Below are positions 6,021 to 64,000 of a stretch of DNA of 64,000 nt, piece after piece. The notes under the pieces were generated by a model. The model ran no database searches and was not told where the DNA came from. It worked only from the letters and a program-made list of their open reading frames with translations. Origin of the DNA: an uncultured Planctomycetia bacterium. GTDB taxonomy: Bacteria; Omnitrophota; Gorgyraeia; JABMRG01; JAFGKX01. Within the stretch, counting starts at the first letter, position 1, and each line of letters starts with the position of its first letter. The stretch is taken from assembly GCA_964570585.1 (NCBI GenBank), contig CAZMYR010000002.1:7313-71312 (forward strand), written 5' to 3'. The position numbers and the translations under genes are program-made.

Positions 6021-6110
6021 TGGCGGAGAGGCTGGGATTCGAACCCAGGAGGCCCGTAAAGACCCACACGCTTTCCAAGCGTGCTCTTTCAACCACTCAG
6101 ACACCTCTCC
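6021..6110 (-). tRNA. tRNA-Ser (anticodon GGA), CCA encoded
   Basis: rc = GGAGAGGTGTCTGAGTGGTTGAAAGAGCACGCTTGGAAAGCGTGTGGGTCTTTACGGGCCTCCTGGGTTCGAATCCCAGCCTCTCCGCCA. Anticodon stem CACGC/GCGTG with loop TTGGAAA. Long variable arm. GGTTCGAATCC T-loop. Confidence 0.85.
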
Positions 6111-7113: not shown

Positions 7114-7205
7114 TGGCGGAGAGAGGAGGATTCGAACCCCCGACCCCGAAATTTCGGGGTAATCGCTTTCGAGGCGATCGCTTTCAGCCACTCAGCCATC
7201 TCTCC
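7114..7205 (-). tRNA. tRNA-Ser (anticodon CGA), CCA encoded
   Basis: rc = GGAGAGATGGCTGAGTGGCTGAAAGCGATCGCCTCGAAAGCGATTACCCCGAAATTTCGGGGTCGGGGGTTCGAATCCTCCTCTCTCCGCCA. Anticodon stem ATCGC/GCGAT with loop CTCGAAA. Long variable arm. Confidence 0.85.
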
Positions 7206-20797: not shown

Positions 20798-20933
20798 CCT
20801 TCCCTGTAGAAATCCACCCTTCGAAATTGCAAAGCAATTTCAAAGGACTAGTCCTATAAAAATGCGAAGCATTTTTGTAGGGAAGGATTTAAGTAGGACT
20901 AGCCCTGCTTAATTGCTTCGCGATTACGCAGGG
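20798..20933. repeat. Repeat element copy A (expanded/degenerate). Contains palindromes AGGACTAGTCCT (20844-20855) and AGGACTAGCCCT (20895-20906)
   Basis: Its core GGACTAGCCCTGCTTAATTGCTTCGCGATT is the reverse complement (2 mismatches) of 50850-50879. Confidence 0.6.
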
Positions 20934-21004
20934 CGGCGATAACTCTGATCCCCTAACGGGGAGGGTTCCCACTGCGCGATTTTCAGCGCCTTCGGCATGA
21001 TTTT

Positions 21005-48316: not shown

Positions 48317-49747
48317 CTATTTATTTTTAATTGGGTTATAAAATACAAATTTTAAAAATGAGATTAGACCCTTAAATAAGTATCTAAAATAATGGAGATT
48401 TAGGCTCATCTTCATATATTTCCATAAAATCCTTGGCCTCAAATAGAACCTCCGAGTTATAAGCTGAATAAAGTACTCTATTTGCCTCTGCGACAATCCA
48501 TAAGGAACAAAAACGTAATTGTGTTCATTGAGAAGTCTCCAATTTCGATTAAATCTACCGTATCTATCTGCTCTTTGATAATCTAAGGTGCCGGGGAAAG
48601 GGGTGAAAGAATTCACAGTAAGAAGATCTAAATCTAATTTCAATATACGTTCCAATGTTTTATGAATGCTTTGAATTGTCTCAATAGGTGTTCCTACCAT
48701 AATATAGCCCTTAGAAATAATACCTGCTTGCTTGGTCCATTTTAATGCCTTAGCGATCATTTCAAGGTTAATATCCTTCTGCAAAAAATCCAATACTTGT
48801 TGAGAACAGCTCTCTATTCCATAGGCAATTCCCCAGCAACCTGCTTTTTTCATCAGATGAAGGAGTGGAAGTTTTGCCATGTTCACCCGGAGATTGCAGG
48901 ACCAAACTAAATTAAGTTTTTCTTTAATCAACATCTCGCATAACTTAACCAATCGCCTTCGATTTATTCCAAACGTACCATCATATATAGCCAAATCTCT
49001 GATACCGTATCTATAGTAAAGCGCTCTTATCATTTCCATTACATACTCAGCACTATGCTCTCTATAACATCTCCCCCATATCCCTTGGCTGCAAAAAGAA
49101 CAACGACCAGGACAGCCCCTGGAAGTAATCAAAGAGGTACAGGGAAGTTTCTTAAATCCAAAAGCTGAAGGCCGGTAGTATTTTTTTAAATCCGGGTATA
49201 AATCCCAAGCAGGAAAAAGCAAGGTATCCAGATTTTTAATAAGTGAGTGCGGGGGTGTCTTAACTATTTTGTCCTTATCTTTGTAAACTATTCCATTTAT
49301 ACTGCTTAAATCCCTGTTATTCTGAAGTGCATTTAACAACTCAACAAGCGTTACCTCCCCCTCTCCTATTATGCCTATATCAAATTGAGGGAACAAATTC
49401 ATTGTCTCTTCAGGTAAGGCACTTAAATGGGCGCCGCCTAAAATAATATACAGCTTATTATTCCTTAGTTTTAATACTCTTGCCACTTCAGCCGCAGAAT
49501 AAATTGACATAGTAACTGCAGTTATTCCGACATAGTTTGGTTGAAAAGAAAGAATACGGTCAATTGTTTGTTCAATATTTAATCTAAGTACCTCGCAATC
49601 TAAAATCTTAACCTCAAAACCTTCTTTCCTTAACGCGGAAGCTAAAAAGCCAAGGCCAAGCGGTGGCATGTAGACCCCAGCCTCAGCTAGCTCTCCATAA
49701 CGCTCTTTCCCGCTTAAAGGAGGGTTTACGAGAATTATTTTTGACAT
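48317..49747 (-). CDS. Cobalamin-binding (class B) radical SAM enzyme
   Basis: CPGRCSFC. B12-binding-like N-terminus. Confidence 0.8.
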   Translation of the reverse strand: MSKIILVNPPLSGKERYGELAEAGVYMPPLGLGFLASALRKEGFEVKILDCEVLRLNIEQTIDRILSFQPNYVGITAVTMSIYSAAEVARVLKLRNNKLYIILGGAHLSALPEETMNLFPQFDIGIIGEGEVTLVELLNALQNNRDLSSINGIVYKDKDKIVKTPPHSLIKNLDTLLFPAWDLYPDLKKYYRPSAFGFKKLPCTSLITSRGCPGRCSFCSQGIWGRCYREHSAEYVMEMIRALYYRYGIRDLAIYDGTFGINRRRLVKLCEMLIKEKLNLVWSCNLRVNMAKLPLLHLMKKAGCWGIAYGIESCSQQVLDFLQKDINLEMIAKALKWTKQAGIISKGYIMVGTPIETIQSIHKTLERILKLDLDLLTVNSFTPFPGTLDYQRADRYGRFNRNWRLLNEHNYVFVPYGLSQRQIEYFIQLITRRFYLRPRILWKYMKMSLNLHYFRYLFKGLISFLKFVFYNPIKNK

Positions 49748-49820
49748 GCTTTTAAAATTTTAAGGTTCTTTACCCCGCCCTTCCTTAAGTATTTTAAATT
49801 ACTATCAGGAAGGGCGGGGT

Positions 49821-50771
49821 TCACTCTATTTTTGCGCGGTTCTCCATTATTTTTTTAACAGAATAAGTAGGTTTTCCGGTAGTCTCATAATATGCCCTGA
49901 CAGATATCTCGGCTAACAACCCCATTAGAATAAACTGAAATCCGATTATGATAAACACCACCATTATAAACAATAGCGGGCTTACCCATACCCCTCCAAA
50001 ATATATCTTTCTTATGACTATTAAAACACCTAACAATACTCCTAAAATATTCGATACAATACCTGGAAAACCAAAAACATAGATAGGGTTACTTATATAA
50101 TTGTTAATAAATTCAGCAGTAAAAAAATCCAAAACCACTTTAAAAATACGGCCCAAACCATACTTCGAGTTACCACGGAATCTCTTTCTATGAGAAACTT
50201 CTACTTCGGCGATAGAAGCTCCTTGCCTTGCTGCATATATAGGCAATAATCTATGCATCTCTCCATATAGCCTCATCTTCTTAATTATATCTTTTTTATA
50301 AACCTTAAAGGTGCATCCGAAATCATGCAACTTAATTTTGCTAAGTTTTGAAATTAAATAATTCGCTATATAGGAGGGAATTTTCTTTGTAAAAAGGGGA
50401 TCCTCCCTCTTCCTGCGCCATCCACTAACAACATCAAAACCTTCCTCCATCTTATTAAGAAGCTTTGGTATATCCGAAGGGTTATTTTGCAAATCAGCAT
50501 CCAGAAAAACTATTATCTCTCCCCGCGAATAATCTATCCCTGCCTGCATAGCTGGTGTCTGTCCATAATGCTGGCTAAGCTGCACTAATCTTATTTTTTC
50601 AGAAGAATTAGCAATATTAATCAACGCCTTGAGACTATTATCTCTACTTCCATCGTCTATATATATAATCTCATAATCTTGGACCAGTGATTTCAATACC
50701 TTATTAAGTTCGCTATTTAAGACATTAAGATTCTTCTCCTCATTATATACAGGAATTATTACTGAAATCAT
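49821..50771 (-). CDS. GT2 polyprenyl-phosphate sugar synthase-like with C-terminal TMs (GtrB/ArnC-type). First gene of the long minus-strand operon
   Basis: ISVIIPVYNEE...IIYIDDGSRDNS. AGGAG SD 10 nt upstream of the ATG. Confidence 0.7.
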   Translation of the reverse strand: MISVIIPVYNEEKNLNVLNSELNKVLKSLVQDYEIIYIDDGSRDNSLKALINIANSSEKIRLVQLSQHYGQTPAMQAGIDYSRGEIIVFLDADLQNNPSDIPKLLNKMEEGFDVVSGWRRKREDPLFTKKIPSYIANYLISKLSKIKLHDFGCTFKVYKKDIIKKMRLYGEMHRLLPIYAARQGASIAEVEVSHRKRFRGNSKYGLGRIFKVVLDFFTAEFINNYISNPIYVFGFPGIVSNILGVLLGVLIVIRKIYFGGVWVSPLLFIMVVFIIIGFQFILMGLLAEISVRAYYETTGKPTYSVKKIMENRAKIE

Positions 50772-50792
50772 AAGCTAAGACTCCTAAGAATA

Positions 50793-50933
50793 GCACCGTT
50801 TCTGAAAGCAAAGGGGCAAGTGTCCCCCTTGCGGGCCCTGCATAATCGCGAAGCGATTAAGCAGGACTAGTCCTGTTGAAATCCTTTGGATTTCTACAGG
50901 GGACATTTGCTACTTTGCTTTCAGAAACGGTGC
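50793..50933. mobile_element. MITE-like 141-bp element with perfect 21-bp terminal inverted repeats (GCACCGTTTCTGAAAGCAAAG)
   Basis: TIRs at 50793-50813 and 50913-50933 are exact reverse complements. Internal palindromes AGGACTAGTCCT (50863-50874) and AATCGCGAAGCGATT. The core is the inverse of the 20798-20933 element. No transposase in the window. Confidence 0.6.
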
Positions 50934-50942
50934 ATCCTACGT

Positions 50943-53900
50943 TTACTCCCTCCCCCCTAAAACCATTATTCCCTTAAATCTTTTAAGAAACCATAAATAG
51001 AAACAAAATAACAGAGAAATCATAAATAAGAAAAATAAAATTAGTTTCTTATAAAAAGGCCTTTTAATGAGAAGATATTCAGAAGGGGTAGCCAAGTACT
51101 CCTCTTGCCTTTGAGCTATAGAGGGTGTTTTTAAATCCTGAAGTTTATTTATAGACTCTCTTAAGCTATCTATTTTCTCCTGTTTAGTTAATTTATTTAG
51201 AGAAGTAACTGCATTTAATTCTTTGCCTTCTTTTAAATTGGTTTCTTTTACCTCTAAACCCAACGTTAGGGCTAAATCTAACAGCTTCTCTCCCCTTTCT
51301 TTCCTTACTGGCCAGGTATTGCCATCTTCGGTTTGCCAGAGGTAGTGCCAGTCCTTCTCTGGCAAGGGTGTGACCAAACCAAACCTCTCCGGTTTCTCAT
51401 AAATCTCGGTACCGGCAATTAGATGAAGGGTATTGATGGATTTAATGGTATCAATATAATCAGCATTTCTTTTAATAAAATCTACTGTTTGCTTAAACTC
51501 AACCTCGCCTTCACCAGGAAACCCAATCATAACAAAGACCTCGGTTTTAATCCCCGCCTGCTTGGCAGCCTGGATAGCCTGTTCAGCCTCCTGAGAGGTG
51601 TATATCTTTCTCATCTTCTTTAAAACCTTATCAGAGGCGCTCTCTAAACCTATCTGTAAGACATCGCAACCAGATTCCTTCATCCTCTTAAATAATTCCC
51701 CCCTCATTTGCCTGGAAGGGGCAATCTGGCCATCCCAAGAAATTCTCAAATCTCTCTCCTTAATACAATCGCATATCTTAGATAGCTCCTCGGGGTCTCC
51801 GTTAAGAAGATTGTCGCTGACAGTAAACTTCTTTATCCCGTATTTATTCACATGGTGAGATAATTCCTCCGCAATAGATTCTACCTTCTTCATTCTGTAG
51901 CCAGGGGCTAAGCGAAAATTTTTGCAGAAACTACACTTTCCTCTACAACCCCTGGACCACTCAACCAGGAAAGCGTTTGAATGATAATTTTCTAAATCAA
52001 ACTCCTCATAGGTAGGAAAGGGCGCTTTTTCTAAATCCAAGGGGTCCCTCCTATTATATACCCAGTGATTATTCTTCTTAGTTACTGCTCCAGCTATTCC
52101 GGTTAATTCTTCTCCCTGATTTATCCTTTTAATAATCTCCAAAAGTGTCTCCTCCCCCTCTCCCACTACAAAGGCATCGATATCGTTACCCACATTATCT
52201 AAAAAACCCCTTCTTTGATACTCGGTAGAACAAGACGGTCCACCCAAAATAATCCTTTTATAAGGGGCCTTTTCCTTAAGCCTTCTAATCACCTCGATGG
52301 TAATATTTTCCCTGGGGTCAACTACGGAAAAACCGATTATATCTGTGGCTGAATTAGCCAAGGTATCAACACAATAATCTAATTGTTCTTTAAATAAATC
52401 CAAGAGTGCAGAGAAGGTATATTTATCATTCCAGAAATTCTTATTCTCCACATGCCAGAGCATCTTAAAATCATCACCAATAGTATTATGAAAATAGACG
52501 TTAAAATCGTAAACCTTGGGATTGAGCCTATATCTTTTTAAATAAGAAGCAAGATAGGCTAATCCGATAGGGGGATTATTCACTCCCCAGGGAGGTAGGG
52601 CAACAAGAAGAATATCAGCCATCTTCTTTCTAAAATCCATAGCTTGTAAATCCGTAGATTTCTCGATAAGATTAGTGCTGAAAATTTGGATATCCAGATC
52701 TTTTAAAACACTGATTACTCTTTCAGTTCTTCTCTTACGGGCCTTAAAATTATTTCCATCGGCAGTATACCAATGTGAATCTCTTAACTCTGGAGAAGAA
52801 GGGAAAAAAATTCCATATTTCTCGGAATTTATAGAGCAGTCGTTTTCTCTAACCGCATTACAGGTATTAATATTTGTTACTCCTGAAATATAATTTCTGT
52901 TCTTTTTAATAAATTCGATAGTTTGCTCAACATCAGCTTCTGTTTCTCCGGGAAATCCAAGAATAAAATTTAGCTGGGTGTTTATTCCTGCCTTACGGGT
53001 ATCCCTCAATACCTCTTCTATTATATCTATTGATAAAGACTTTCTCATCTTTTTTAAGACCTTATTTGAACCAGATTCTATGCCATAATTTAAGGTTAAG
53101 CATCCCGCCTTCCTCATCTTATATAAAAGTGGGTATCTCATTTGTCTTCTTGCTATTGCCAGAGCTATCCAGGTTAATTTATATTTTGAACCAATAATTA
53201 AATCGCATAATTTTCCCAACTCATTTATATTGCCATTAATGAGCGCGTCGTTGAAATAAAAATTGTTTATCTTATTCTTCTCAACATGGTATTTAATCTC
53301 CTCGAACATATTTTCAGCAGTCCTTATTCTATATTTGCCTGTTGCCCTCCAATCATCGCAAAAGGCGCATCTATTAATACAGCCTCTGCTCATTAAAAGA
53401 GGCAGGGCTTTCTCTGTATACTTCTCAAGGTTAAATTCCTCAAAAGTGGGATAGCTCAAGCTATCAAGTGAATTAACAAACTGAGGAATCTCAAAATTAT
53501 TTCCTTTGAGCCTACAAGAAACCACTCCGGGAATATCTATGGATAGATAATTCTCTTTTATTTTACTAACTAATTTAAACAGTGTCGGCTCTCCTTCACC
53601 AAGAACAAAAAAATCAATTATATCTTGAGGGAAAATTTGTTCTCTGTCCTGTTTTGACAAACAACCACGACCGCCAACCACAATTATTTTATCGGGGGAC
53701 CTTTCTTTAATCTGCTTGATTACCTCAATAGTGAATAACCTGTTTGAAGCGCAGACAGAAAATCCATAGATATTTGTATTTGAAAAAGAGAGAATTTTCT
53801 CCGCGCAATACTCAACTTCATTCTTTAATAGTTGCTTAAGTTGAATAAATGAATCCCAATCGCACCAATGTTTGCTGTTGTCCAAATTCCATAATTCTTT

Positions 53901-54071
53901 AACTCTATCACTAACTTTTTCATAAACATCGATATTTAGATCCAGAACTCCTGCCCTTATCTTTCTTGCTCTTAAATTTGCCGATAAATAAGCTAAACTC
54001 AAAAGTGGCATTTTTACTTCCCATGCTGGACAAGCTACCAAAATAATATCCTTATCGTTTATCATGTTCAA
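50943..54071 (-). CDS. Fused two-module cobalamin-binding radical SAM enzyme (1042 aa)
   Basis: Two complete B12-binding + radical SAM units with cysteine motifs CINRCAFC and CRGKCSFC. Confidence 0.8.
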   Translation of the reverse strand: MNMINDKDIILVACPAWEVKMPLLSLAYLSANLRARKIRAGVLDLNIDVYEKVSDRVKELWNLDNSKHWCDWDSFIQLKQLLKNEVEYCAEKILSFSNTNIYGFSVCASNRLFTIEVIKQIKERSPDKIIVVGGRGCLSKQDREQIFPQDIIDFFVLGEGEPTLFKLVSKIKENYLSIDIPGVVSCRLKGNNFEIPQFVNSLDSLSYPTFEEFNLEKYTEKALPLLMSRGCINRCAFCDDWRATGKYRIRTAENMFEEIKYHVEKNKINNFYFNDALINGNINELGKLCDLIIGSKYKLTWIALAIARRQMRYPLLYKMRKAGCLTLNYGIESGSNKVLKKMRKSLSIDIIEEVLRDTRKAGINTQLNFILGFPGETEADVEQTIEFIKKNRNYISGVTNINTCNAVRENDCSINSEKYGIFFPSSPELRDSHWYTADGNNFKARKRRTERVISVLKDLDIQIFSTNLIEKSTDLQAMDFRKKMADILLVALPPWGVNNPPIGLAYLASYLKRYRLNPKVYDFNVYFHNTIGDDFKMLWHVENKNFWNDKYTFSALLDLFKEQLDYCVDTLANSATDIIGFSVVDPRENITIEVIRRLKEKAPYKRIILGGPSCSTEYQRRGFLDNVGNDIDAFVVGEGEETLLEIIKRINQGEELTGIAGAVTKKNNHWVYNRRDPLDLEKAPFPTYEEFDLENYHSNAFLVEWSRGCRGKCSFCKNFRLAPGYRMKKVESIAEELSHHVNKYGIKKFTVSDNLLNGDPEELSKICDCIKERDLRISWDGQIAPSRQMRGELFKRMKESGCDVLQIGLESASDKVLKKMRKIYTSQEAEQAIQAAKQAGIKTEVFVMIGFPGEGEVEFKQTVDFIKRNADYIDTIKSINTLHLIAGTEIYEKPERFGLVTPLPEKDWHYLWQTEDGNTWPVRKERGEKLLDLALTLGLEVKETNLKEGKELNAVTSLNKLTKQEKIDSLRESINKLQDLKTPSIAQRQEEYLATPSEYLLIKRPFYKKLILFFLFMISLLFCFYLWFLKRFKGIMVLGGRE

Positions 54072-54103
54072 AGAAATACCTTAAGAGCACTGAAAAATTA
54101 CAT

Positions 54104-54985
54104 TTAATGTAAATAAGTTATTGCTGCCTCGCATCTTTTACAGATAAAGTCTTCTGGAGATTCAGTTTTACCCTCGACCATATCCCAGACCTTCTTTCTT
54201 CTTCCATTCCAGATCTCATAAATAGAAGAATTCTTTACATTACCCAATACTACTTCCCTCCTCCAATCCATACAGCAGATAACAGCATCGCCATTGTATA
54301 AAATAGGAAGTAACTCATTTGCCCAAATAGTGGCGCATCCACCGACAGAGGAATGTCTCACTTTGGGCAGAGAGCTAACATTTCCTGCTCGAGAGATAGG
54401 CCCTTCAAAATAGCTTATCTTTCTTATTCCTTTTTCTTGCCAGAAATTAAAGGTTTCCTCTTTCTCTTTCTCAGTCAAATACTTATGTTTTAGGAAGGTA
54501 ATTATAATAAATTCTTCAATATTTCGTCCAGACCTTCTGACCATTTCGATAAACTGACCGATTCTTTTTAGGGTAAGCTCAGGATTTAGGCCCGTAGCAC
54601 CGTAAATAGTTTTTGGATATATTCCATGAACGCTTATCCCTACCCAATCTAACTTAGAATTAATCAAGGCCATGGAGAGCTCTTCTGTTAAAAGGCTCCC
54701 ATTGGTCAAGATATGGATAGAGCTTTGAGGATTCTTTTCTTTAGCATAATTTATTTTTTTTACTATATCCTTATCCATCAAGGGTTCATTCATAAGATAG
54801 GGCATAATTCTTTCTATAGAAGAATTATATTGGCTGCACTCATCAACAATTTTTCTGTACAGATTCCCCTCCATATTGCCTTGAGGCAATTCATCTTTAA
54901 CCTCAGGATAAGGGCAAAAGATACACCTGCCATTGCAGCATGATGCAGTCTGGATCATTATATATTTAGGAAATTTTAAATGCAT
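54104..54985 (-). CDS. Small radical SAM protein with SPASM/twitch-type C-terminal Cys domain
   Basis: CCNGRCIFC. GGCATIWANELLPILYNGDAVICC...CKRCE. Confidence 0.65.
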   Translation of the reverse strand: MHLKFPKYIMIQTASCCNGRCIFCPYPEVKDELPQGNMEGNLYRKIVDECSQYNSSIERIMPYLMNEPLMDKDIVKKINYAKEKNPQSSIHILTNGSLLTEELSMALINSKLDWVGISVHGIYPKTIYGATGLNPELTLKRIGQFIEMVRRSGRNIEEFIIITFLKHKYLTEKEKEETFNFWQEKGIRKISYFEGPISRAGNVSSLPKVRHSSVGGCATIWANELLPILYNGDAVICCMDWRREVVLGNVKNSSIYEIWNGRRKKVWDMVEGKTESPEDFICKRCEAAITYLH

Positions 54986-54987
54986 AG

Positions 54988-57111
54988 TTAGATGGTATGT
55001 AGTTCGTGTGCTGAAATACCTATCCTTCCTGAAAAGTTCAGGTTATCTTTCATCATTCGCGCATTTAACATCCTTGCCTTCATTCTCTTAGGGCAATTCT
55101 GGACCTGGCCTAATACATTTAATTTGTTACCTGAAAAATCGAAAATAATATCTGGAAGGTTTCCTAAATCATCGCTCCTTAATTCTAAACACCCATTTTG
55201 ATGGTTGCCTAAAGTTATATCTCGCCAGATGCCTTCTGCCTCAGGGAAGTCTCCTTGCTCATCACCGCTAACCCAAGTCTTATATCTCTCAGAGGCCATT
55301 AAGCCCACTTTCCACTCCCCGATATCCAATTCTTTATTTAAATGGTTAGTTACCTTCCAGTGAAGCCGGCCTGAACCATCTATGGCCATCTTCCAGAGCT
55401 GGGTTATGGGCAGATTATCCCACTTGATCCAGGCAATAAACCGATGCCGGCCCATCTTTATCTTCCAGTGGCCCTGGGATGAATCGTGCCAATTTTTTCC
55501 GAGCTTAAAGGAGCTATTTAGACCCACATCTTCGGTTACCTCCTTATCCTGATAGTAGAGCTTTAGCCATCCATTATTCCAGCTAAGTTTTAGGGAATTT
55601 CTGATAATACTCCTGTCCCTGCCTCTATCTTCCCTCGCCTTATTGAGCTTATTAATAACCCTCCTTAGCTTCCAACCTTCGAATTTCCCATCTTCCATAG
55701 GATAATGATTAATTATCAAATGAGGTATTTTTAACTTATACAAAGTTAGAAGCACTTTTCGGAGTCGTTTCATCCTTACCTTAAAATTATTACCTGTATT
55801 ATCGTAGAAGTAATTCCAATTATCACTGGGTAAATAAATTCCGTACTTTTCAGGATGAAGCCCGATGTCTGCTGTAGGGTTAATAAATAAGGTTGAGACA
55901 TTGGTTACCTCATGGATATATTCCTTATTTCTCTCAATGAAATTAAGGGTCTCCTTAAAGCAAAAATTGTCTTCGCCAGGATGACCAACGATAATATTAA
56001 TAGTTGTCCGGATTCCGCTTTGGTAGGTTGCTCTGACTAGTCTCTCGGCATCCTGGCCGGTATAAGGCTTGTTCATCTTCTTGAGTACTTTATCCGATGC
56101 GTTATCCATACCGTAACATAAATTTCTGCATCCTGCTTCTTCCATTTTCTTAAGTAGTTTAAACTCCATATCTTTTCTTATAACAGCATAACTGCCCCAG
56201 TTAAATTTTAATTTTGATTCAATAACTAAGTCACAAAATGCCTCCAGTTGTCTGAGATTGCCATTACATTCTAAATCGTTGAATGAAAAGTTATTGCAGT
56301 CGTTATTCTCGATATGAAACCTGACTTCTTCTAATATGTCCTCCGGCTTCTTCCATCTATACGGTGCGCACATAGCGCAGTCAACACAAAAACTACATCG
56401 GCGAGGGCATCCCCTGCTCGATAAAAGGGGTAAGATTCTTGTATTTTGCTTAAGATATAAAGAGTACAAACTTAAATCAAATTCTTCAAATGTGGGAAAA
56501 GGGATAGTATCTAATTTCTTCACTGGGTCAGGTCTTTGCTCACCAATATATTTCCCATCTCTATGCATTAAAGTACCGGGGATGTCTCCGATAATACCTT
56601 TTTTATAAAATGAAATCAGGATATTTAATAAGGGTTTTTCTCCTTCTCCAATTACAAAAATATCCACCAAGCCCTTTTTAACTTTATAGAAATCCCAATA
56701 ACAACCTGGCCCGCCAAAAATTATTATCCTTTTCTTATCCCTTTGCTTGATAATCTCTGTAATCTTCTCTGCTACAAATAAACTCATATAATTAACTGAA
56801 AAACCGATAAATTTTGTTTCTATAGATAAAACTTGATTAACAAAAGAATCTACCTCTTTATCAAAAGCCCCTACTAAATCTTTGGCCACCTGTCGAGGGA
56901 GAAGTTGGAATAGGGTCTCGATCTTCCAAAATCTTTTATTCTTTCGAGAGGCCTTATTGTATAGGTAAGCATTAAGATCGATTATCTTTGAATTGAACCT
57001 ATGGCTATTTAGATAGGAAACCAGATAAGCGATACCTATAGGAGGCATCTTTGTCTCCCAGGGTGGCACCATAACCAAAACAATATCGGGTTTCTTAACT
57101 TGACTATTCAT
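54988..57111 (-). CDS. Cobalamin-binding radical SAM enzyme with ~230-aa Trp-rich C-terminal extension
   Basis: CPRRCSFC. The C-terminal region WKIKMGRHRFIAWIKWDN...GEWKVGLMASERYKTWVSGDEQGDFPEAEGIWRDITLGNHQNGC is duplicated at 57157-57568. Confidence 0.75.
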   Translation of the reverse strand: MNSQVKKPDIVLVMVPPWETKMPPIGIAYLVSYLNSHRFNSKIIDLNAYLYNKASRKNKRFWKIETLFQLLPRQVAKDLVGAFDKEVDSFVNQVLSIETKFIGFSVNYMSLFVAEKITEIIKQRDKKRIIIFGGPGCYWDFYKVKKGLVDIFVIGEGEKPLLNILISFYKKGIIGDIPGTLMHRDGKYIGEQRPDPVKKLDTIPFPTFEEFDLSLYSLYLKQNTRILPLLSSRGCPRRCSFCVDCAMCAPYRWKKPEDILEEVRFHIENNDCNNFSFNDLECNGNLRQLEAFCDLVIESKLKFNWGSYAVIRKDMEFKLLKKMEEAGCRNLCYGMDNASDKVLKKMNKPYTGQDAERLVRATYQSGIRTTINIIVGHPGEDNFCFKETLNFIERNKEYIHEVTNVSTLFINPTADIGLHPEKYGIYLPSDNWNYFYDNTGNNFKVRMKRLRKVLLTLYKLKIPHLIINHYPMEDGKFEGWKLRRVINKLNKAREDRGRDRSIIRNSLKLSWNNGWLKLYYQDKEVTEDVGLNSSFKLGKNWHDSSQGHWKIKMGRHRFIAWIKWDNLPITQLWKMAIDGSGRLHWKVTNHLNKELDIGEWKVGLMASERYKTWVSGDEQGDFPEAEGIWRDITLGNHQNGCLELRSDDLGNLPDIIFDFSGNKLNVLGQVQNCPKRMKARMLNARMMKDNLNFSGRIGISAHELHTI

Positions 57112-57156
57112 TACTAAAAAATATCAATTCAGATTCTTCATTTTTCTCATTACTCT

Positions 57157-57540
57157 CTACTTTTTAAGCACTATCTTTCCTGAAAAGTTCAGGTTATCTT
57201 TCATCATTCGCGCATTTAACATCCTTGCCTTCATTCTCTTAGGGCAATTCTGGACCTGGCCTAATACATTTAATTTGTTACCTGAAAAATCGAAAATAAT
57301 ATCTGGAAGGTTTCCTAAATCATCGCTCCTTAATTCTAAACACCCATTTTGATGGTTGCCTAAAGTTATATCTCGCCAGATGCCTTCTGCCTCAGGGAAG
57401 TCTCCTTGCTCATCACCGCTAACCCAAGTCTTATATCTCTCAGAGGCCATTAAGCCCACTTTCCACTCCCCGATATCCAATTCTTTATTTAAATGGTTAG
57501 TTACCTTCCAGTGAAGCCGGCCTGAACCATCTATGGCCAT
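57157..57540 (-). pseudogene. Gene fragment: exact duplicate of the C-terminal 120 codons of 54988..57111 (DNA identity 55018-55408 vs 57171-57568)
   Basis: The identity extends ~28 nt upstream of the ORF's first Met. This suggests a duplication remnant rather than an independent gene. It could be expressed as a standalone domain. Confidence 0.5.
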
Positions 57541-57554
57541 CTTCCAGAGCTGGG

Positions 57555-59042
57555 TTATGGGCAGATTACTCCACCATCTTCATTAATGTGCTTATCTTTC
57601 TTTTCCTCTAAGACTTTATTTGTAAACTCAATACATTCTGCTTCCTCGGTATAGGGAATATGCGATTGGCTAGCTAGATTTTTCAACTCTTTAATCTTCC
57701 TCTCTCTAACCTCTCTTGTATTATTTTCACGAGGTATATGCCAGTTAAATTCGCCACTATCTTGAGGAAAAGTAATGCCGTATTTTTTCGGGTTATGAAA
57801 TATTTCTGAGCCAGTCATTATGTACAAAGGGTTTATAGACTTTATTAAGGTAATAAATTTAGTGTTTCTTTTTAAAAACTCTTTAGTCTCATTGAAATCT
57901 TGCTCTGTTTCCCCCGGATACCCTACTATAAAGTAAAGGCATGTTTTTATACCCACTTTATGAGTGTCTCTTAATACCTTCTCTGCTATTTTTCTGGTAA
58001 ACATTTTTCTCATTGCTTTTAAAATTTTATTAGACCCACTCTCTATACCATATTCCAGCCGAAAAAAACCTGCCCTTTTCATCTTTCTTAACAAATCTTC
58101 GGTCATTTCTCTGCGTGAAATTGCCAAACCAGTAATATTTACAAAAAGCCTATTTTTGATTAACAAATTACAAGTTTCCTCTAAAACTTTAATATTTCCA
58201 TTTGCCGCCGCATCAGATACACTTATGTACTCGATATTGTATTTTTCTTTATAAAATTTTATTTGATTAAAAATATTTAAAGCTGATTTAGACTTGAAAA
58301 AAGGGAAAATACTCTTAACGCTACAAAAAGGGCAATTCCCTATACAACCACGAGAAAATTCCATTACAACGCAATTAGAAGACTTATATTCATTTAAATT
58401 GAATTCATCAAATGTAGGATAGGGAAAATTATCTAACCGTTCACCAAACTCAGGAGTTAAATCATCAAAAAAAGTTTCTTTAACCAATACACCTTTTATA
58501 TCAATAGCTTTTGTATTTTCTTTATTTAAAATAGATAATAATAGTTTATATAAAGCTGTCTCTCCCTCGCCTAGTACACAATAATCAACGTAATCCTTTA
58601 TTTTGTTAAGTAAAACTTCTCTTTGTTCTTTTACAGTAACATTTACTCCTCCAAGAACTATTATTTTAAAAGGAGATACGCGCTTAACCCTTTTTACTAT
58701 CTCTTCTAAAATTAGATTGGAACTATCAGTAAGTGAAGACAGACCTAATACTGGCGAGGAAGAGTTAACTATTTCGTCTATAAGTGAATTTAGATGGGTC
58801 TTTATTTTTTCATCGAATTTTAAAAGTTCTTCTTTTTGTCGCCACCAGTGAGCATAATTCATAGACCATAAATATCTGCATTTTTGGGGAACCCCGTTAT
58901 ATAACTTAGTATTAAAATCAAAAATTTCTGTACTTATGCCTTTATCTCTTAAATAACTACTAAGACAAGCCGTCCCCAAAGGAGGAACATCCACTCCCCA
59001 TGGAGGCAGGTTTACTAATAAAATATCTGGTTTATCTGACAT
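57555..59042 (-). CDS. Cobalamin-binding (class B) radical SAM enzyme
   Basis: CIGNCPFC. B12-binding-like N-terminus. Confidence 0.8.
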   Translation of the reverse strand: MSDKPDILLVNLPPWGVDVPPLGTACLSSYLRDKGISTEIFDFNTKLYNGVPQKCRYLWSMNYAHWWRQKEELLKFDEKIKTHLNSLIDEIVNSSSPVLGLSSLTDSSNLILEEIVKRVKRVSPFKIIVLGGVNVTVKEQREVLLNKIKDYVDYCVLGEGETALYKLLLSILNKENTKAIDIKGVLVKETFFDDLTPEFGERLDNFPYPTFDEFNLNEYKSSNCVVMEFSRGCIGNCPFCSVKSIFPFFKSKSALNIFNQIKFYKEKYNIEYISVSDAAANGNIKVLEETCNLLIKNRLFVNITGLAISRREMTEDLLRKMKRAGFFRLEYGIESGSNKILKAMRKMFTRKIAEKVLRDTHKVGIKTCLYFIVGYPGETEQDFNETKEFLKRNTKFITLIKSINPLYIMTGSEIFHNPKKYGITFPQDSGEFNWHIPRENNTREVRERKIKELKNLASQSHIPYTEEAECIEFTNKVLEEKKDKHINEDGGVICP

Positions 59043-59187
59043 ATATCTTTTGCAAATCTTTTCTCTTCAACGGCTCATTCAGTATAAAACTCAAATTCTC
59101 AATACCGCTGCTGCCATTTTACCCTTTATTATCAGAGATGGATATCCTTTATTAAATATCCCTTCGGACTCTAAAGGTATGAAAAGA

Positions 59188-62100
59188 CTAAGCTTGCTTT
59201 GGAGATAGCTTTAAAATTCTTTTATGCATCTTCTCATTATGCATCAGGTTATCGCAGGTTTTGATGCAGCCGATTTCCTTAAAATAAGGGTGGGTTTTAG
59301 ATAAAGTCTTGGCCCGGCATCTAAACTCATCATATTTTTTGCTGAACCAGATATCTTTAAAATTTTGCTTGTTTATATTTCCCATTGGCTCCTTTACTGC
59401 CCGACAGCAAGGAACGACGGTTCCATCAGCCATAATCCGGCAAAAAAACCAACCAACATAGCAGGGGATAAAATCTACTCTGTGGACATCATAATTACCC
59501 TTATAGCTCGAATCTCCAGAAACCCTTTCTAAGAACCCATCAAAATAATCCAAATTCAATCCATTGGCGGAGGCTCTATTCTGGCTTTCAATCTGTTTAG
59601 CCAATTTAAGAACTTCTTTAGATTGGGCCTGATTTAGGATTAAGCTATCCGTAGCCCCTTCAATAACATCAACCACGGTATAATAGAGATTCTCTGCTTT
59701 TACATCTTGAGCAAGCTTATACATCGCTGGAATATCCTGACAATTGAGATTGGTAATCACATTGGATAGGGTCAAAGAGGGCTTAGAATTCTTCCTTGTT
59801 TGAGCTAAATAAACCAAATTTTCCACAATCTCCTCAAAAAGACCCTGATTTACCCCGGGATGGGTCGCTTGATAGGTTTCATCATGAGCGGCCCACAGGC
59901 TCACTGCCAACTCATCTAATTCTAAATCCACTAATTGCTTTATCTTTTCTTTGTCCATTAAAGAAAAATTGGTGGTAACAGCAGCTTTTATTCCCTTTTT
60001 CTTGGTATATTCTAAGAGCTCCATAATATCAGAATGCATAAAGGGCTCTCCACCTCCAGTATAGCGAATCTTCTCTGCCCCTAAATCAGCTAATTCATCG
60101 ATCAATCTTTTAACTACTTCTGTATCTAATTGCATCCGTAACCATTCATGGTTAAAATCCTTGTTTTCTTCTTTTAAAAGGGATGAATACATCCAGCAGC
60201 CAATACAGCGCTGATTACATCGGTTGGTCAAATCAACAACAATATGCTCTGGTCCCTTAAATGCCCTTCTTCCATCGGTAATACCGGAAATAACCAAATC
60301 CTCTTTTGAGGCCTTTTTTAAAGAGACGCTCTTATGCTTATCTTCAGATTTAAACTTCCTTAAAGTCCTGGTTAATTTAGCCGTCACCGTAAATCCAGCC
60401 CTCTCAAGGGGTCCCAGAGACATCATTTTCTTATGCATATGCATATTTCTACCAATATCATCGCAGCTTTTATAGCAGCCGGCTTCCTGAGTATCCGGGT
60501 CGTTACCGATTAACCTGAAAAACGAGCCGTCCTTTTTATAAACCTTAGCCTTGCTCCGGAAATATCTTTGTTTTGAATTATTCCAGATACTCTTAAAATT
60601 GTCTCTATATAGATTGCCTACCGGAATCCGATGGGACTTAAGACAAGAATTTATATCCCCATTAGGCATAACCCGGGCAAACAACCAGCCAATATAGCAG
60701 GGCATCTTATCGATAATATTTCTATCGTAGGTGGCTTTTTGTAAATCTTGGCAGGAAGAAGTCCGGCGTAAGAAGGAATCAAATCTGAATAATAATACAT
60801 TATCAATGTAACCGCGGGCATCCATTCGCTGGGCAACCCTCTGACAGATTCTTTGAAGCTTCAGAGCCTGTTCAGTATCCAAGATTAATTTATCTGTTTT
60901 GCCCGGCATAGTATCAATAAGGGTAAACTCGACTGACTCCGAGCCCGTATATCTGGCCAGCTCAATCATCTCCTCTACCTCTTGATAATTCATCGTAAAC
61001 AAGACATTGTAGAGCTTTATATAAGGAGTTTCTCTTTTGTTCCTATTAAGATACCTTAAATTCTCCACAATCTGCCTAAAGGCCTCTTCATTTTTATTAG
61101 GATGGGTAATATCGTAGGTGTGAGCCGTCCCGGCCCAGGTACTGACGGTTAGATGCTCTACCCCCATCTTTATCAACTCATCTATTCTTTTTTTATCTAA
61201 AAGGGTAAAGTTTGTATTCACATAACAGACCAGGTCCCTGCTCTTAGTAAACTTGAGTATCTCCATAATATCAGGATGCATGAAGGGCTCTCCTCCGCCA
61301 GAGAAATAAATCTCTTTGCCTCCCAACTTGACAATTTCATCAATTACTTCCTTAACTATCTCTAAGGGTAATTCCTCCCTTTTTTCTTCTTGCGATAACC
61401 TCTTTTCTTCTAAAAGGGGAGAATTACACCAGCAGCCAATACAATTATTATTACAGTTATTGGTAAGGTCAATCTGGACATGAAAGGGGCCCTTATAGGC
61501 ATACTCTCCATCATAGATTCCTAAAATTTCTAAGAAATTCTTCTTTAACCAGGAAGGTTTTGCAAGCCTGAGAATCTTTCTTCCGGCAATCAATCCTCCA
61601 AACAGGGGTACCTTATCCCTGAAGAAACCTAAAAATCTCCTGTTTTGATAAATCCTCTCCCTATCAGGAATAAGCATCTTATTATCAAACTCAACCAATA
61701 TAAACCCTTCTAAATGGGGAATCACACCGTTAGTATAAATCCTCAAAATATGCTCACCCTGGCCAGCAAACAATATTGCTTCCTTAAAAGTCCTTAAATT
61801 TTTCCTTTTCCAGCCACCAGTAACCCCGGACATTCCATCCTCTTTAAGCAACCTATCATCCAGATATATATTCACCGGACGTTTCTCTCCTGAAGCATAT
61901 CTACTCCATAAAACATACCTTTTTGATTCCGGTAAATAAACCTTATATTCGGCAAAGCAAAACCCCTCGCCGCCATCAATTACCATGCCCTTACCAAATA
62001 TATGCTCTTGAATATTTAGATTTCCTGATTTAAATTTACTGGCAGGAATAATAAGCTTTATCTGCGCCTCAGGGAGACTGTAGTCTCCCTTTGCCTTTCT

Positions 62101-63567
62101 TTTCATAGTAAGTTGATGATTTAAACCCTTTTGTTTTTTATCTGAAAAAAATGACTCCTTAATCTGTAAATTCATACCTACATTATCGCAAGACTTATAG
62201 CAATTAATCTCTTTAAAATAAGGGTCGCTTTTAGGTAGGGACTTTGTCTTATATCTAAACTCTCGATAAGCAGGAGAGTCCCAGATTTCTAAAAAATTAT
62301 TCTTGTAAATATTGCCCAAAGGCTTAAGCACTGCTTTACAGCAAGGGATAACTTCACCGGTAGATAAAACCCGTGAGTATGTCCAACCCATATAACAGGG
62401 GAGATTATCAATTATGTCCTTTTCATAGACCTGCTCATATATATTAGCTGAATTTAATCGGCGCATAAAAGAACCAAAACCCAATATTGTTAAAAAGTTA
62501 AAGGTAATCTTGCTATTTTCACCAACAGGACAAAAGTTTTTAAGCTGAGGGCATTTTTTGCAATCCTCTTTAGAGAATTTAAAGGTCATTTTATTATCGA
62601 CCTCATTAATCAAAGGATTCACTTTAGTGGGTAGAGTAGAAAATCCCTCAGGACATCTCAACGAATGCATGGCCTCTTTTCCAACGCCATCTTTGTCTTT
62701 TAACCACTCCTTAAGAAAGAAATTTGGATAAATCCTTATAAATCGGCCGGGGAATTCCCTCAATTCCTTATCTTTTGCAACCTTTTGAGTTTTAAAATCG
62801 AGCAATCCTAATTCCTTAAAATATAAATCCCTGTGCTTGGTCAAGGCATCAAATTGCTCTTTGATATCTTTTACTTGCTGATCAGATAGAGCCAAAAATG
62901 AAGTTTCATCTTTAATGATATCCATTACCTGGAATTCAATAGACTCAACTTGTGTATCTAAAGCAAAATCAATCATCTGCTGGATTTCCCTATAATTTAG
63001 ATTACAAATTACGTTATAAATCTTTATATGGGGAAGATATTTATTTCCTTTAGTCTTTAACCTGGAGAGTCTCTTAAGACTATTTTTTATTTTATAAAAA
63101 TCTACTTCTGTCTTGCCGGGGTGAGTCTCTATATATGTTTCTGGGGTGGCAGCCCAGATACTTGCCGTAATCATATCCACGCCTAAATCGATGAGCCTTT
63201 TTGCTCTTTCCTCATCAATCAAGGTAAAATTGGTAATTATGTTAAGTTTTAGCTCTTTCATTTTTATTAATTCTATAATTTCTATAATATCGGGATGTAA
63301 AAATGGCTCGCCTGCGCCAGAAAGAAAAATTTCCTCTGTCCCTGAACGAGACAAGTCTTCGATTAATGTCTTGACTTTTGCGAATGGTAAACTAAGATTT
63401 TTATCACGCGGTGGATTCTTTATAAAAGAAGAGTGCACCCAGCAACCGATACAGTTGTTATTGCATTTACCGGTTAGGTCAATCTGAACAATCCCTGGAC
63501 CAGTAAAGGCACGCCTACCATCCATTATCCCTTTTAGGGCCGATTGATTAACCTTGGTCTCCAGCAT
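59188..63567 (-). CDS. Three-module radical SAM/SPASM megaprotein (1459 aa) with carbohydrate-binding-module-like inter-module domain
   Basis: Three CxxxCxxC clusters (CNNNCIGC twice, CNQRCIGC). Each is followed by a GGEPF(L/M)HxDI motif and a SPASM-like PCY(M/I/V)GW...G....PCC...GN(I/L)....F..IW tail. Between modules 1 and 2 lies a ~100-aa Y.S...RPVNIYLDD...GGW...GEHILRI...P.L.GF segment with a CBM6/35-like pattern. Confidence 0.8.
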   Translation of the reverse strand: MLETKVNQSALKGIMDGRRAFTGPGIVQIDLTGKCNNNCIGCWVHSSFIKNPPRDKNLSLPFAKVKTLIEDLSRSGTEEIFLSGAGEPFLHPDIIEIIELIKMKELKLNIITNFTLIDEERAKRLIDLGVDMITASIWAATPETYIETHPGKTEVDFYKIKNSLKRLSRLKTKGNKYLPHIKIYNVICNLNYREIQQMIDFALDTQVESIEFQVMDIIKDETSFLALSDQQVKDIKEQFDALTKHRDLYFKELGLLDFKTQKVAKDKELREFPGRFIRIYPNFFLKEWLKDKDGVGKEAMHSLRCPEGFSTLPTKVNPLINEVDNKMTFKFSKEDCKKCPQLKNFCPVGENSKITFNFLTILGFGSFMRRLNSANIYEQVYEKDIIDNLPCYMGWTYSRVLSTGEVIPCCKAVLKPLGNIYKNNFLEIWDSPAYREFRYKTKSLPKSDPYFKEINCYKSCDNVGMNLQIKESFFSDKKQKGLNHQLTMKRKAKGDYSLPEAQIKLIIPASKFKSGNLNIQEHIFGKGMVIDGGEGFCFAEYKVYLPESKRYVLWSRYASGEKRPVNIYLDDRLLKEDGMSGVTGGWKRKNLRTFKEAILFAGQGEHILRIYTNGVIPHLEGFILVEFDNKMLIPDRERIYQNRRFLGFFRDKVPLFGGLIAGRKILRLAKPSWLKKNFLEILGIYDGEYAYKGPFHVQIDLTNNCNNNCIGCWCNSPLLEEKRLSQEEKREELPLEIVKEVIDEIVKLGGKEIYFSGGGEPFMHPDIMEILKFTKSRDLVCYVNTNFTLLDKKRIDELIKMGVEHLTVSTWAGTAHTYDITHPNKNEEAFRQIVENLRYLNRNKRETPYIKLYNVLFTMNYQEVEEMIELARYTGSESVEFTLIDTMPGKTDKLILDTEQALKLQRICQRVAQRMDARGYIDNVLLFRFDSFLRRTSSCQDLQKATYDRNIIDKMPCYIGWLFARVMPNGDINSCLKSHRIPVGNLYRDNFKSIWNNSKQRYFRSKAKVYKKDGSFFRLIGNDPDTQEAGCYKSCDDIGRNMHMHKKMMSLGPLERAGFTVTAKLTRTLRKFKSEDKHKSVSLKKASKEDLVISGITDGRRAFKGPEHIVVDLTNRCNQRCIGCWMYSSLLKEENKDFNHEWLRMQLDTEVVKRLIDELADLGAEKIRYTGGGEPFMHSDIMELLEYTKKKGIKAAVTTNFSLMDKEKIKQLVDLELDELAVSLWAAHDETYQATHPGVNQGLFEEIVENLVYLAQTRKNSKPSLTLSNVITNLNCQDIPAMYKLAQDVKAENLYYTVVDVIEGATDSLILNQAQSKEVLKLAKQIESQNRASANGLNLDYFDGFLERVSGDSSYKGNYDVHRVDFIPCYVGWFFCRIMADGTVVPCCRAVKEPMGNINKQNFKDIWFSKKYDEFRCRAKTLSKTHPYFKEIGCIKTCDNLMHNEKMHKRILKLSPKQA
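61942..62077. repeat. Exact duplication (>=135 bp) shared with 63866-64000, running off the window end
   Basis: Identical strings cttatattcggcaaagcaaaacccctcgccgccatcaattaccatgcccttaccaaatatatg... on both. Confidence 0.8.
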
Positions 63568-63595: not shown

Positions 63596-64000
63596 CTAAC
63601 TATCTTTGACTCCTTTAAGAAAAGCAAAACTGTGAATGTGAGGGATAAAACCTTTAGTATGTATCTTTAAGGTATGCTCCCCTTCACAGGCGTCGAGGGT
63701 TGTTTCTTTAAGCCAGCGTAAATCTTCCGTTGTCCAGCCAGAGGTTGTAGAATTCAATGCCTTTCTTTTAATTAAATTGGCATCAAAATAAAGTTCAACC
63801 GGACGCAGCTTATTAGTTGCATAATAAGACCAGAGCTCGTATCTGCCACCTTCCTTAAAATGCTTCTTATATTCGGCAAAGCAAAACCCCTCGCCGCCAT
63901 CAATTACCATGCCCTTACCAAATATATGCTCTTGAATATTTAGATTTCCTGATTTAAATTTACTGGCAGGAATAATAAGCTTTATCTGCGCCTCAGGGAG
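63596..64000 (-). CDS. Partial paralog of the megaprotein (N-terminus outside window). C-terminal CBM-like domain
   Basis: The track reports 63596..63910 from the first in-window Met, but the frame is open and DNA-identical to the megaprotein coding sequence up to position 64000. Confidence 0.6.
   Translation of the reverse strand, partial: LPEAQIKLIIPASKFKSGNLNIQEHIFGKGMVIDGGEGFCFAEYKKHFKEGGRYELWSYYATNKLRPVELYFDANLIKRKALNSTTSGWTTEDLRWLKETTLDACEGEHTLKIHTKGFIPHIHSFAFLKGVKDS

Follow-up and report, generated by a model that had tools for sequence, protein, structure and literature searches.

The gene at positions 50943 to 54071 (reverse strand) of a 64,000-nucleotide (nt) stretch of contig CAZMYR010000002.1, here called the window, encodes two complete class-B-type radical S-adenosylmethionine (SAM) units in one polypeptide. 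The contig is part of assembly GCA_964570585.1, from an uncultured bacterium that is labelled Planctomycetia and has a GTDB lineage in the Omnitrophota. Class B radical SAM enzymes carry out some of biology's hardest alkylations. Comparison with relatives indicates that the fusion gene joins two old, functionally distinct paralogues, and that the junction between them has probably been made and broken repeatedly. The protein is one of the simpler members of a recurrent multi-radical-SAM fusion subfamily. These fusions form an undescribed group, and the protein is a new architectural variant within a known enzyme class.

Two complete radical SAM units in one open reading frame

The open reading frame (ORF) extends over 1042 codons from a TTG, and no stop occurs inside the frame. 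Its third codon is an ATG, at position 54065. Because the relative P0001 (92% identical, 1040 amino acids [aa], from a separate assembly of another read set) begins at the position of this codon, the ATG is the likelier start and the product would then have 1040 aa; residues are numbered here from the TTG. An overlooked stop or frameshift that splits the ORF into two ordinary genes was looked for, but the frame is intact and the two-unit layout recurs in P0001 and in divergent assemblies.

The protein carries a B12-type domain and a CxxxCxxC core, twice; a coiled segment comes next, and a single membrane helix lies at the C terminus. A Pfam search with the whole protein recovered two B12-binding and two Radical_SAM stretches, as proposed in an initial annotation that had been made from the DNA letters alone. 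The N unit (aa 1 to 478; 52638 to 54071), here called Bn-type, and the C unit (aa 479 to 960; 51192 to 52637), called Bc-type, were each assigned from Pfam matches, identity to homologues and a tree clade of their own. These and all other features of the gene lie on the reverse strand. The [4Fe-4S]/SAM cluster motifs that had been named as the cores of the two halves were both located: CINRCAFC at aa 231 to 238 (53358 to 53381), with cysteines that are invariant or nearly so in the alignment, and CRGKCSFC at aa 709 to 716 (51924 to 51947), found by motif search and alignment. With an uninterrupted frame, paired Pfam domains and the same architecture in dozens of independent assemblies, the annotated fusion of two complete units in a single polypeptide stands.

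Scored alone, both halves clearly exceeded the Radical_SAM cut-off of 29.5 bits (83.7 bits for the N half and 89.9 bits for the C half), and with motif and above-cut-off core both belong to the radical SAM superfamily (PF04055). The B12-binding match of the C half (39.0 bits) was above the cut-off of 32.1 bits, whereas that of the N half (25.6 bits, E = 1.2e-5) was below it. The B12-binding-like domain that had been ascribed to each half is supported by the same modelled fold and by conserved positions in both halves and by the family score in the C half only. In the N unit, the Rossmann-like, B12-binding-type domain comprises approximately aa 8 to 175 (53547 to 54050), as judged from modelled secondary structure and conserved residues (D44, N46, W61, W69, S105, G133-G134 and G158-E161), and the model places a helical insert at aa 45 to 95 within it. 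Fold and motifs together suggest that the units bind cobalamin.

The AlphaFold2 model of the protein has a mean predicted local distance difference test score (pLDDT) of 88.2 and contains two equivalent domain pairs, both of them confident. The linker between the units, which is the fusion junction, spans approximately aa 470 to 486 (52614 to 52664) and is disordered at aa 479 to 483 (pLDDT <50). Behind the C unit, a poorly ordered helical stretch (aa 961 to 1004) leads to a long helix (aa 1005 to 1033). Model helix and hydropathy together identify a predicted C-terminal transmembrane helix, or tail anchor, at approximately aa 1005 to 1033 (50973 to 51059). The hydropathy window at aa 1006 to 1024 scores 2.07 and is the sole membrane-type segment among the radical SAM proteins of the window. 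A membrane helix at the extreme C terminus is also present in 25 of 119 large relatives.

The two halves belong to different paralogue groups

Aligned with each other, the halves are 36% identical over 453 residues (E = 6e-96), far past chance. Across 24 aligned homologues, the N unit has 60 positions conserved at ≥90%, and 48 of them match the same conserved residue in the C unit. Among the conserved positions that both units share are the three cysteines of the cluster motif, GxESxS in the barrel and, in the Rossmann-like domain, S...GG and GEGE.

Higher identities were found to units of other proteins, which are referred to below by P numbers and their loci by L numbers. The N unit is 58 to 61% identical to the first B12-type unit of P0009 to P0011 and 50 to 53% identical to that of P0006 to P0008. 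The C unit is 54 to 56% identical to the last B12-type unit of P0002, P0006 to P0008, P0018, P0019 and P0021. Since each half is nearer to its counterparts in other genomes (50 to 61%) than to the other half (about 36 to 37%), a recent tandem duplication is disfavored.

Alignment with the neighboring genes, which had also been suggested as a check, gave pairwise identities of 31 to 38% among the N unit, the C unit and two other B12-type proteins of the window (B495 and B707, described below), and of 22 to 29% between these and the window's other four B12-type units. In a neighbor-joining tree of 119 units, the N unit, the C unit, B495 and B707 fell into separate groups; the tree carries no support values and counts as supporting evidence only, and unit types were assigned via the best BLAST hit. 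As the halves come from different old paralogue groups, two different catalytic steps are probably a better explanation than the iterative enzyme that the initial annotation had offered as one option, and the latter idea is disfavored.

Multi-unit fusions are common among the relatives

When 5.8 billion proteins were searched by word index, about 40 clusters were found that covered the larger part of the query. HMMER, run exhaustively over 1.84 billion representatives, yielded 2226 proteins at E ≤1e-30. To count architectures, 240 retrieved relatives were mapped with the window's own units. At least two B12-type units were present in 93 of them (two in 78, three in 12 and four in 3), and 39 of these 93 also contained SPASM units. 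The multi-unit relatives range from 869 to 2689 aa in length. The 150 best representatives at 50% identity included 130 that were newly retrieved, and at least about 55 of those were multi-unit as well. Tandem fusion had been called rare, which holds against proteins at large, but within the subfamily it is typical.

The architectures found, with B for B12-type and S for SPASM units, were BB, SBB, SBBB, BBB, BBS, SBBS, BBBB and SBBBB, and up to five CxxxCxxC motifs occur in one chain (e.g., P0112, 2331 aa). The commonest junction is the one seen here, Bn to Bc, with 31 cases, and the Bc-type is most often the last B unit (50 of 93). The same unit is found in other settings: as a separate gene after the others in L019, L020 and L025, joined to the 293-aa SPASM type instead in L028, L037 and L055, and joined to a B707- or B495-type unit in L012, L018 and L021. 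The units that flank the fusion junction are separate genes in L019, L020, L025, L037 and L055. The group as defined here, multi-unit fusions of the "B12-type plus SPASM" kind in which one chain has at least two Bn-, Bc-, B495- or B707-type units and SPASM-type radical SAM units are fused or adjacent to it, is not a curated family; the window protein qualifies with its Bn-Bc arrangement and the SPASM genes upstream.

Four relatives (P0010, P0034, P0145 and P0163) lack CxxxCxxC in one or both B units. These motif-less units may be degenerate, non-catalytic or the result of sequence errors.

The named sources of the relatives are mainly "Candidatus Omnitrophota", with many entries auto-labelled as Planctomycetia or Planctomycetales. 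Further sources are Woesearchaeota, Nanoarchaeota, a complete DPANN genome (CP010425, 1.16 Mb), Caldisericota, Calescamantes and Cloacimonadota. Among species representatives, none was closer than 50% identity, so the organism of the window is absent from them; it is probably Omnitrophota-like.

The fusion gene lies in a glycan locus

The genes from 22567 to 63567 are all on one strand and closely spaced. Directly downstream of the fusion gene, a GT2 glycosyltransferase of 316 aa (49821 to 50771, reverse strand) was identified by Pfam, with two C-terminal membrane helices by hydropathy. A GT2 gene directly follows the fusion gene in L001 too, and L002, L026 and L055 have one downstream of their multi-unit gene, adjacent to it in L026. 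Further B12-type radical SAM genes are found on the same reverse strand from 48317, 43002, 41555 and 22567 onward. The rest of the locus encodes a DegT aminotransferase, more GT2 enzymes, GT1, GT-C (PMT_2), AsnB, a methyltransferase and an ABC-2 exporter. The window also holds Wza-, Wzc- and Wzz-like export genes and more than 10 glycosyltransferases. This gene content marks the window as a surface-polysaccharide locus.

The context is kept in relatives. Among 13 loci of ≥12 kb with a multi-B gene, all 13 contain SPASM units and 10 contain homologues of the window's glycosyltransferases, which agrees with the placement in a glycan pathway given in the initial annotation. Companions in the homologous loci are a 315-aa GT2, PMT_2, AsnB, GT1, sulfatase/phosphodiesterase-family proteins and Wzm/Wzt-type exporters. 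In bacteria and archaea alike, the set is accompanied by glycosyltransferases, PMT_2, AsnB-like amidotransferases and Wzm/Wzt-type exporters.

The polysaccharide locus is bordered on its left by a phage-type integrase gene (2472 to 3530) and two tRNA-Ser genes with the anticodons GGA and CGA (6021 to 6110 and 7114 to 7205), and it may belong to a region that is integrated or variable. The two tRNA-Ser genes were the only RNA elements found in the window, and a cobalamin riboswitch was not among them. Promoter and terminator scans gave no excess of sites over shuffled sequence. The G+C content is 30 to 43% per 2-kb window.

Neighboring radical SAM genes

Between 22567 and 63567 (about 41 kb), 12 radical SAM cores are encoded, of which 8 are B12-type (in 7 genes) and 4 SPASM-type (in 2 genes). 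Directly upstream of the fusion gene lies a radical SAM/SPASM gene of 293 aa identified by Pfam (S293; 54104 to 54985). It is followed by a B12-type radical SAM gene of 707 aa with Pfam and NCBIfam matches (B707; 54988 to 57111), a further B12-type gene of 495 aa recognized from family matches and tree (B495; 57555 to 59042), and a triple radical SAM/SPASM fusion of 1459 aa with three Radical_SAM and three SPASM stretches in Pfam (59188 to 63567), all on the reverse strand.

The types represented by these neighbors recur in other combinations. The S293 type is fused to B units, as S-B-B or S-B-B-B, in P0002, P0004 to P0008, P0018, P0019, P0022, P0111, P0117 and others. The B495 type is fused to Bc- or Bn-type units in P0015, P0038 and P0019. 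The triple SPASM fusion recurs with 1431 to 1445 aa in the Omnitrophota-like loci L002, L006, L012, L023, L026, L028, L037 and L055, and its three units are three separate genes in the archaeal loci L008 and L010 (Woesearchaeota-type and Nitrososphaeria). By the usual fused-gene argument, the fusions of neighboring types to units of the fusion protein elsewhere imply that the neighboring radical SAM genes of the window work together with it.

Two accessory segments were noted in these neighbors. The 707-aa protein ends in an all-beta domain of about 200 aa (approximately aa 500 to 707; 54991 to 55614, reverse strand; pLDDT of the model, 76.5). This domain recurs one to three times per protein beside radical SAM units, in tandem arrays and in many loci, and in L006 it also forms the C terminus of a Wzt-like ATP-binding cassette (ABC) ATPase. 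The C terminus is where Wzt-type transporters carry their glycan-recognition domain. The all-beta domain had no Pfam match, no PDB sequence match with a 24-sequence profile and no Foldseek match at E ≤0.001, and a profile search of a large protein database was empty. Its best Foldseek matches were weak (E = 5.6e-3, template modeling [TM] score <0.5) and comprised beta-sandwich domains of polysaccharide lyases and glycosidases and the YidC periplasmic domain. At most, the modelled beta-sandwich resemblance is a hint at carbohydrate binding. In the triple SPASM protein, units 1 and 2 are separated by the second segment, a beta-rich insert of about 100 to 150 aa.

Both segments are partly duplicated in the window. 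The 3' end of the 707-aa gene, encoding the C-terminal domain, occurs again upstream as a 127-aa ORF (57157 to 57540), and the two places share a 300-nt direct repeat with 100% identity (55020 to 55319 and 57171 to 57470). Either part of the gene was duplicated recently or the repeat is an artifact of assembly. The insert of the triple SPASM protein has a paralogue in a stand-alone ORF of 104 aa (63596 to 63910, reverse strand), with a 150-nt repeat of 95% identity (61927 to 62076 and 63851 to 64000). The CBM_6 match of the 104-aa ORF in Pfam was sub-threshold (E = 0.024).

A palindromic element next to the fusion gene

The only intergenic gap beside the fusion gene (50772 to 50942) is occupied by a palindromic insertion of about 168 nt (50775 to 50940) with perfect 20-nt terminal inverted repeats, located between the stop of the fusion gene and the start of the GT2 gene. 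The insertion folds at -92.9 kcal/mol (z = -11.3), and the close relative L001 lacks it. The terminal repeat was found in 33 metagenome contigs, mostly of one sample series, with variable inner length, and this suggests a dispersed element resembling miniature inverted-repeat transposable elements or repetitive extragenic palindromes. A degenerate partial copy is located near 20883 to 20934.

Over 1801 nt (49133 to 50933), up to the palindrome, a contig of the Joint Genome Institute (JGI), L095 (Ga0315545_1031308), matches the window at 99.94% identity. Past the palindrome, it carries an unrelated ORF of 306 aa in place of the fusion gene. By appearance, and without a family search, this ORF looks like a PfkB-type sugar kinase. 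Either the strains differ here or one of the assemblies was joined wrongly at the repeat.

The departure of this near-identical contig and the assembly-prone repeats nearby, namely, the exact 300-nt repeat and the palindrome, could be taken to mean that the fusion itself is an artifact in which a frameshift, a lost stop or an assembly chimera has joined two ordinary genes. However, the fusion junction sits in a continuous, well-aligned frame and the repeats fall outside the ORF. The architecture recurs in P0001, which stems from another sample, and in numerous divergent assemblies. The position of the GT2 gene relative to the multi-unit gene is kept in L001, L002, L026 and L055, and this synteny supports the arrangement of the window at the palindrome. 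Because the two-unit architecture recurs in dozens of independent assemblies, we exclude an artifact, whose probability we consider negligible.

Proposed function and alternative explanations

The function that we favor, at slightly less than even confidence, is that of a tail-anchored two-module enzyme that carries out two different radical alkylations on a membrane-proximal sugar or glycan intermediate. The polypeptide would be held by its tail anchor and face the cytoplasm, with a Bn-type and then a Bc-type module that are complete but non-equivalent. In each unit, a separate [4Fe-4S] cluster, SAM and cobalamin would be bound and a separate radical alkylation would take place, most likely a C-methylation. 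A sugar is suggested as the substrate by the genomic context, to which weak hints are added by the all-beta domain, with its place in the Wzt-like ATPase and its structural matches, and by the CBM_6 match; it may be linked to polyprenyl phosphate, and it would be made by the downstream GT2, while a PMT_2-type enzyme would transfer the product outside the cell. The four related B12-type and four SPASM units encoded at 50943 to 63567 would form one physically associated tailoring machine that the tail anchor keeps at the membrane. The fusion would serve channelling and a fixed stoichiometry of two consecutive, different steps.

A broader proposal, which we consider possible but rather doubtful, is that the fusion protein forms the end module by which a conserved, multi-radical-SAM "tailoring factory" is anchored to the membrane. 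This system would have been exchanged between bacteria and archaea, and its product in Omnitrophota-like bacteria and DPANN archaea would be a previously undescribed surface sugar or lipid-linked glycan with heavy C-alkylation or cross-linking.

Several points weigh against two alkylations of a sugar. The B12-binding match of the N unit is under the Pfam cut-off when scored alone. AprD4, which is among the closest structures, shares the fold yet is a dehydratase and not a methylase, and because of this fold-mate methylation is not guaranteed. Peptide maturation is the usual role of SPASM enzymes and of TIGR03975, and membership of the fusion protein in a curated B12/radical SAM family was rejected, as no NCBIfam cut-off was reached. 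The mutual orientation of the two units is not confidently predicted (predicted TM score, 0.55). The carbohydrate hints from the accessory domains (CBM_6, E = 0.024; Foldseek, E = 5.6e-3 and TM <0.5) are below significance, and the paralogue grouping leans on a tree without support values and on unit typing by best BLAST hit.

Some of these points would also fit other activities. Both units may have the class B fold without both being cobalamin-dependent methylases, so that other radical chemistry on sugars (dehydration, epimerization or C-C coupling) takes place or one unit serves as a scaffold or regulator. The closeness of the sugar 1,2-diol dehydratase AprD4, the low B12-binding score of the N unit and the lack of CxxxCxxC from one unit in P0010, P0034, P0145 and P0163 can all be read in this way. 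We nevertheless consider it unlikely, although worth keeping in mind, as both units here keep the cluster cysteines and 48 of 60 conserved positions, including S...GG and GEGE, and the closest curated families are methyltransferases. An even less probable explanation is that the units mature a peptide or protein, with multiple C-methylations or cross-links on a ribosomal peptide or on a surface or S-layer protein. They would then resemble PoyB/PoyC-type class B methylases and SPASM maturases, and PMT_2, of a protein-mannosyltransferase-like family, would glycosylate the protein afterwards. The best NCBIfam match of the fusion protein is indeed TIGR03975, a family of radical SAM C-methyltransferases in the maturation of ribosomally synthesized and posttranslationally modified peptides (RiPPs), followed by ApyD, and the companion enzymes have SPASM domains. 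The TIGR03975 score, even summed over the two units, amounts to 279.1 bits and stays below the cut-off of 281.85 bits, and sugar-nucleotide and glycosyltransferase genes dominate the contexts. No conserved small ORF accompanies the genes, and a RiPP precursor was not found beside the fusion gene, where the sole adjoining gap is the palindromic insertion that L001 lacks.

The C-terminal membrane anchor could alternatively place the units at membrane lipids, whose chains they would methylate, cyclize or cross-link as in hopanoid, tetraether or ladderane pathways. A distribution across archaea and bacteria and partial similarity to the lipid B12/radical SAM family TIGR04072, to HpnJ and to HpnR are in line with such a role. 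The scores of the two units taken together, however, are far under the respective cut-offs (192 versus 360, 180 versus 578 and 120 versus 650 bits), and in the window and the homologous loci no lipid-synthesis genes were seen, whereas glycan genes recur. We therefore regard an action on lipids as quite improbable.

Returning to the tail-anchored enzyme with two sugar alkylations, the interest lies more in the system that it exposes than in the single protein. Across the subfamily, one chain holds two to four B12-type units, often together with SPASM units, in changing combinations, and the pattern of fusion and fission reveals which enzymes act together. The proteins are encoded in surface-glycan loci of organisms whose genomes are tiny, such as CP010425 (1.16 Mb), and in which every gene is costly. 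One gene with two mutable cluster motifs offers a testable entry into the surface-glycan chemistry of uncultured lineages. If the tailoring factory proved true, it would be a new biosynthetic system, possibly with new carbohydrate chemistry.

Comparison with known enzymes

The top Foldseek matches of the model are TsrM, OxsB, MgmA/QCMT, CysS and TokK (E = 1e-20 to 1e-15), and solved structures are no closer than 14 to 18% identity. All of these share the domain order of the two units, a Rossmann-like B12-type domain and then a CxxxCxxC radical SAM barrel. They have one unit per chain (417 to 731 aa), whereas the fusion protein has two and a membrane tail anchor. As far as is known, the class B enzymes with solved structures are soluble. 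By sequence, the only detectable PDB matches were QCMT (E = 4e-14) and AprD4 (6fd2; E = 6.4e-8). AprD4 has the same two-domain fold, acts on the carbohydrate paromamine and ranks 11th in Foldseek (E = 4e-17; TM score to the target, 0.73). According to its PDB entry title, it is a 1,2-diol dehydratase of aminoglycosides. The enzyme is not known to use cobalamin. Unlike the fusion protein, AprD4 is a single-unit enzyme, and the score of the fusion protein for NCBIfam rSAM_AprD4 is 76 bits versus a cut-off of 500 bits.

The best curated likenesses are TIGR03975, of the PoyB/PoyC type, and PhpK, which are C- and P-methyltransferases, respectively. For PhpK, the sum over both units is 265 bits (cut-off, 600 bits), and the single-unit neighbor proteins reach 109 to 139 bits against TIGR03975. 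The settings of these families differ from that of the fusion gene, near which precursor peptide and phosphonate genes are absent and glycan biosynthesis genes are found instead. BchE (164 versus 481 bits) and the MCR glutamine methylase (161 versus 360 bits) are likewise under their cut-offs. The protein thus appears to have the fold and layout of class B enzymes while being a member of no defined family.

In the literature that we found, class B radical SAM enzymes were studied only as single-unit proteins. The words "fusion," "fused," "tandem" and "duplicat" appear nowhere in the text of a 2026 review of B12-dependent radical SAM enzymes (PMC12931638). Literature searches on radical SAM enzymes in Omnitrophota, DPANN or polysaccharide loci returned no description of such an architecture, and those on tandem, multiple or two radical SAM domains turned up only the case of FbiC.

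FbiC is an FO synthase that in many bacteria combines two radical SAM domains in one protein, and its counterparts CofG and CofH are separate in archaea (PMC11917521). Within this single pathway, the two FbiC domains each use a 5'-deoxyadenosyl radical of their own (PMC11917521). The CofG, CofH and FbiC families were absent among the best 25 of 41 NCBIfam matches of the fusion protein, and no homology test was made. In FbiC, too, consecutive radical steps are fused in some organisms and kept apart in others, and it is the closest precedent in principle. It differs in that its subfamilies appear unrelated to those described here, it has no B12-type domain and it is a fixed pair, whereas the present group is combinatorial, with up to five units in a chain.

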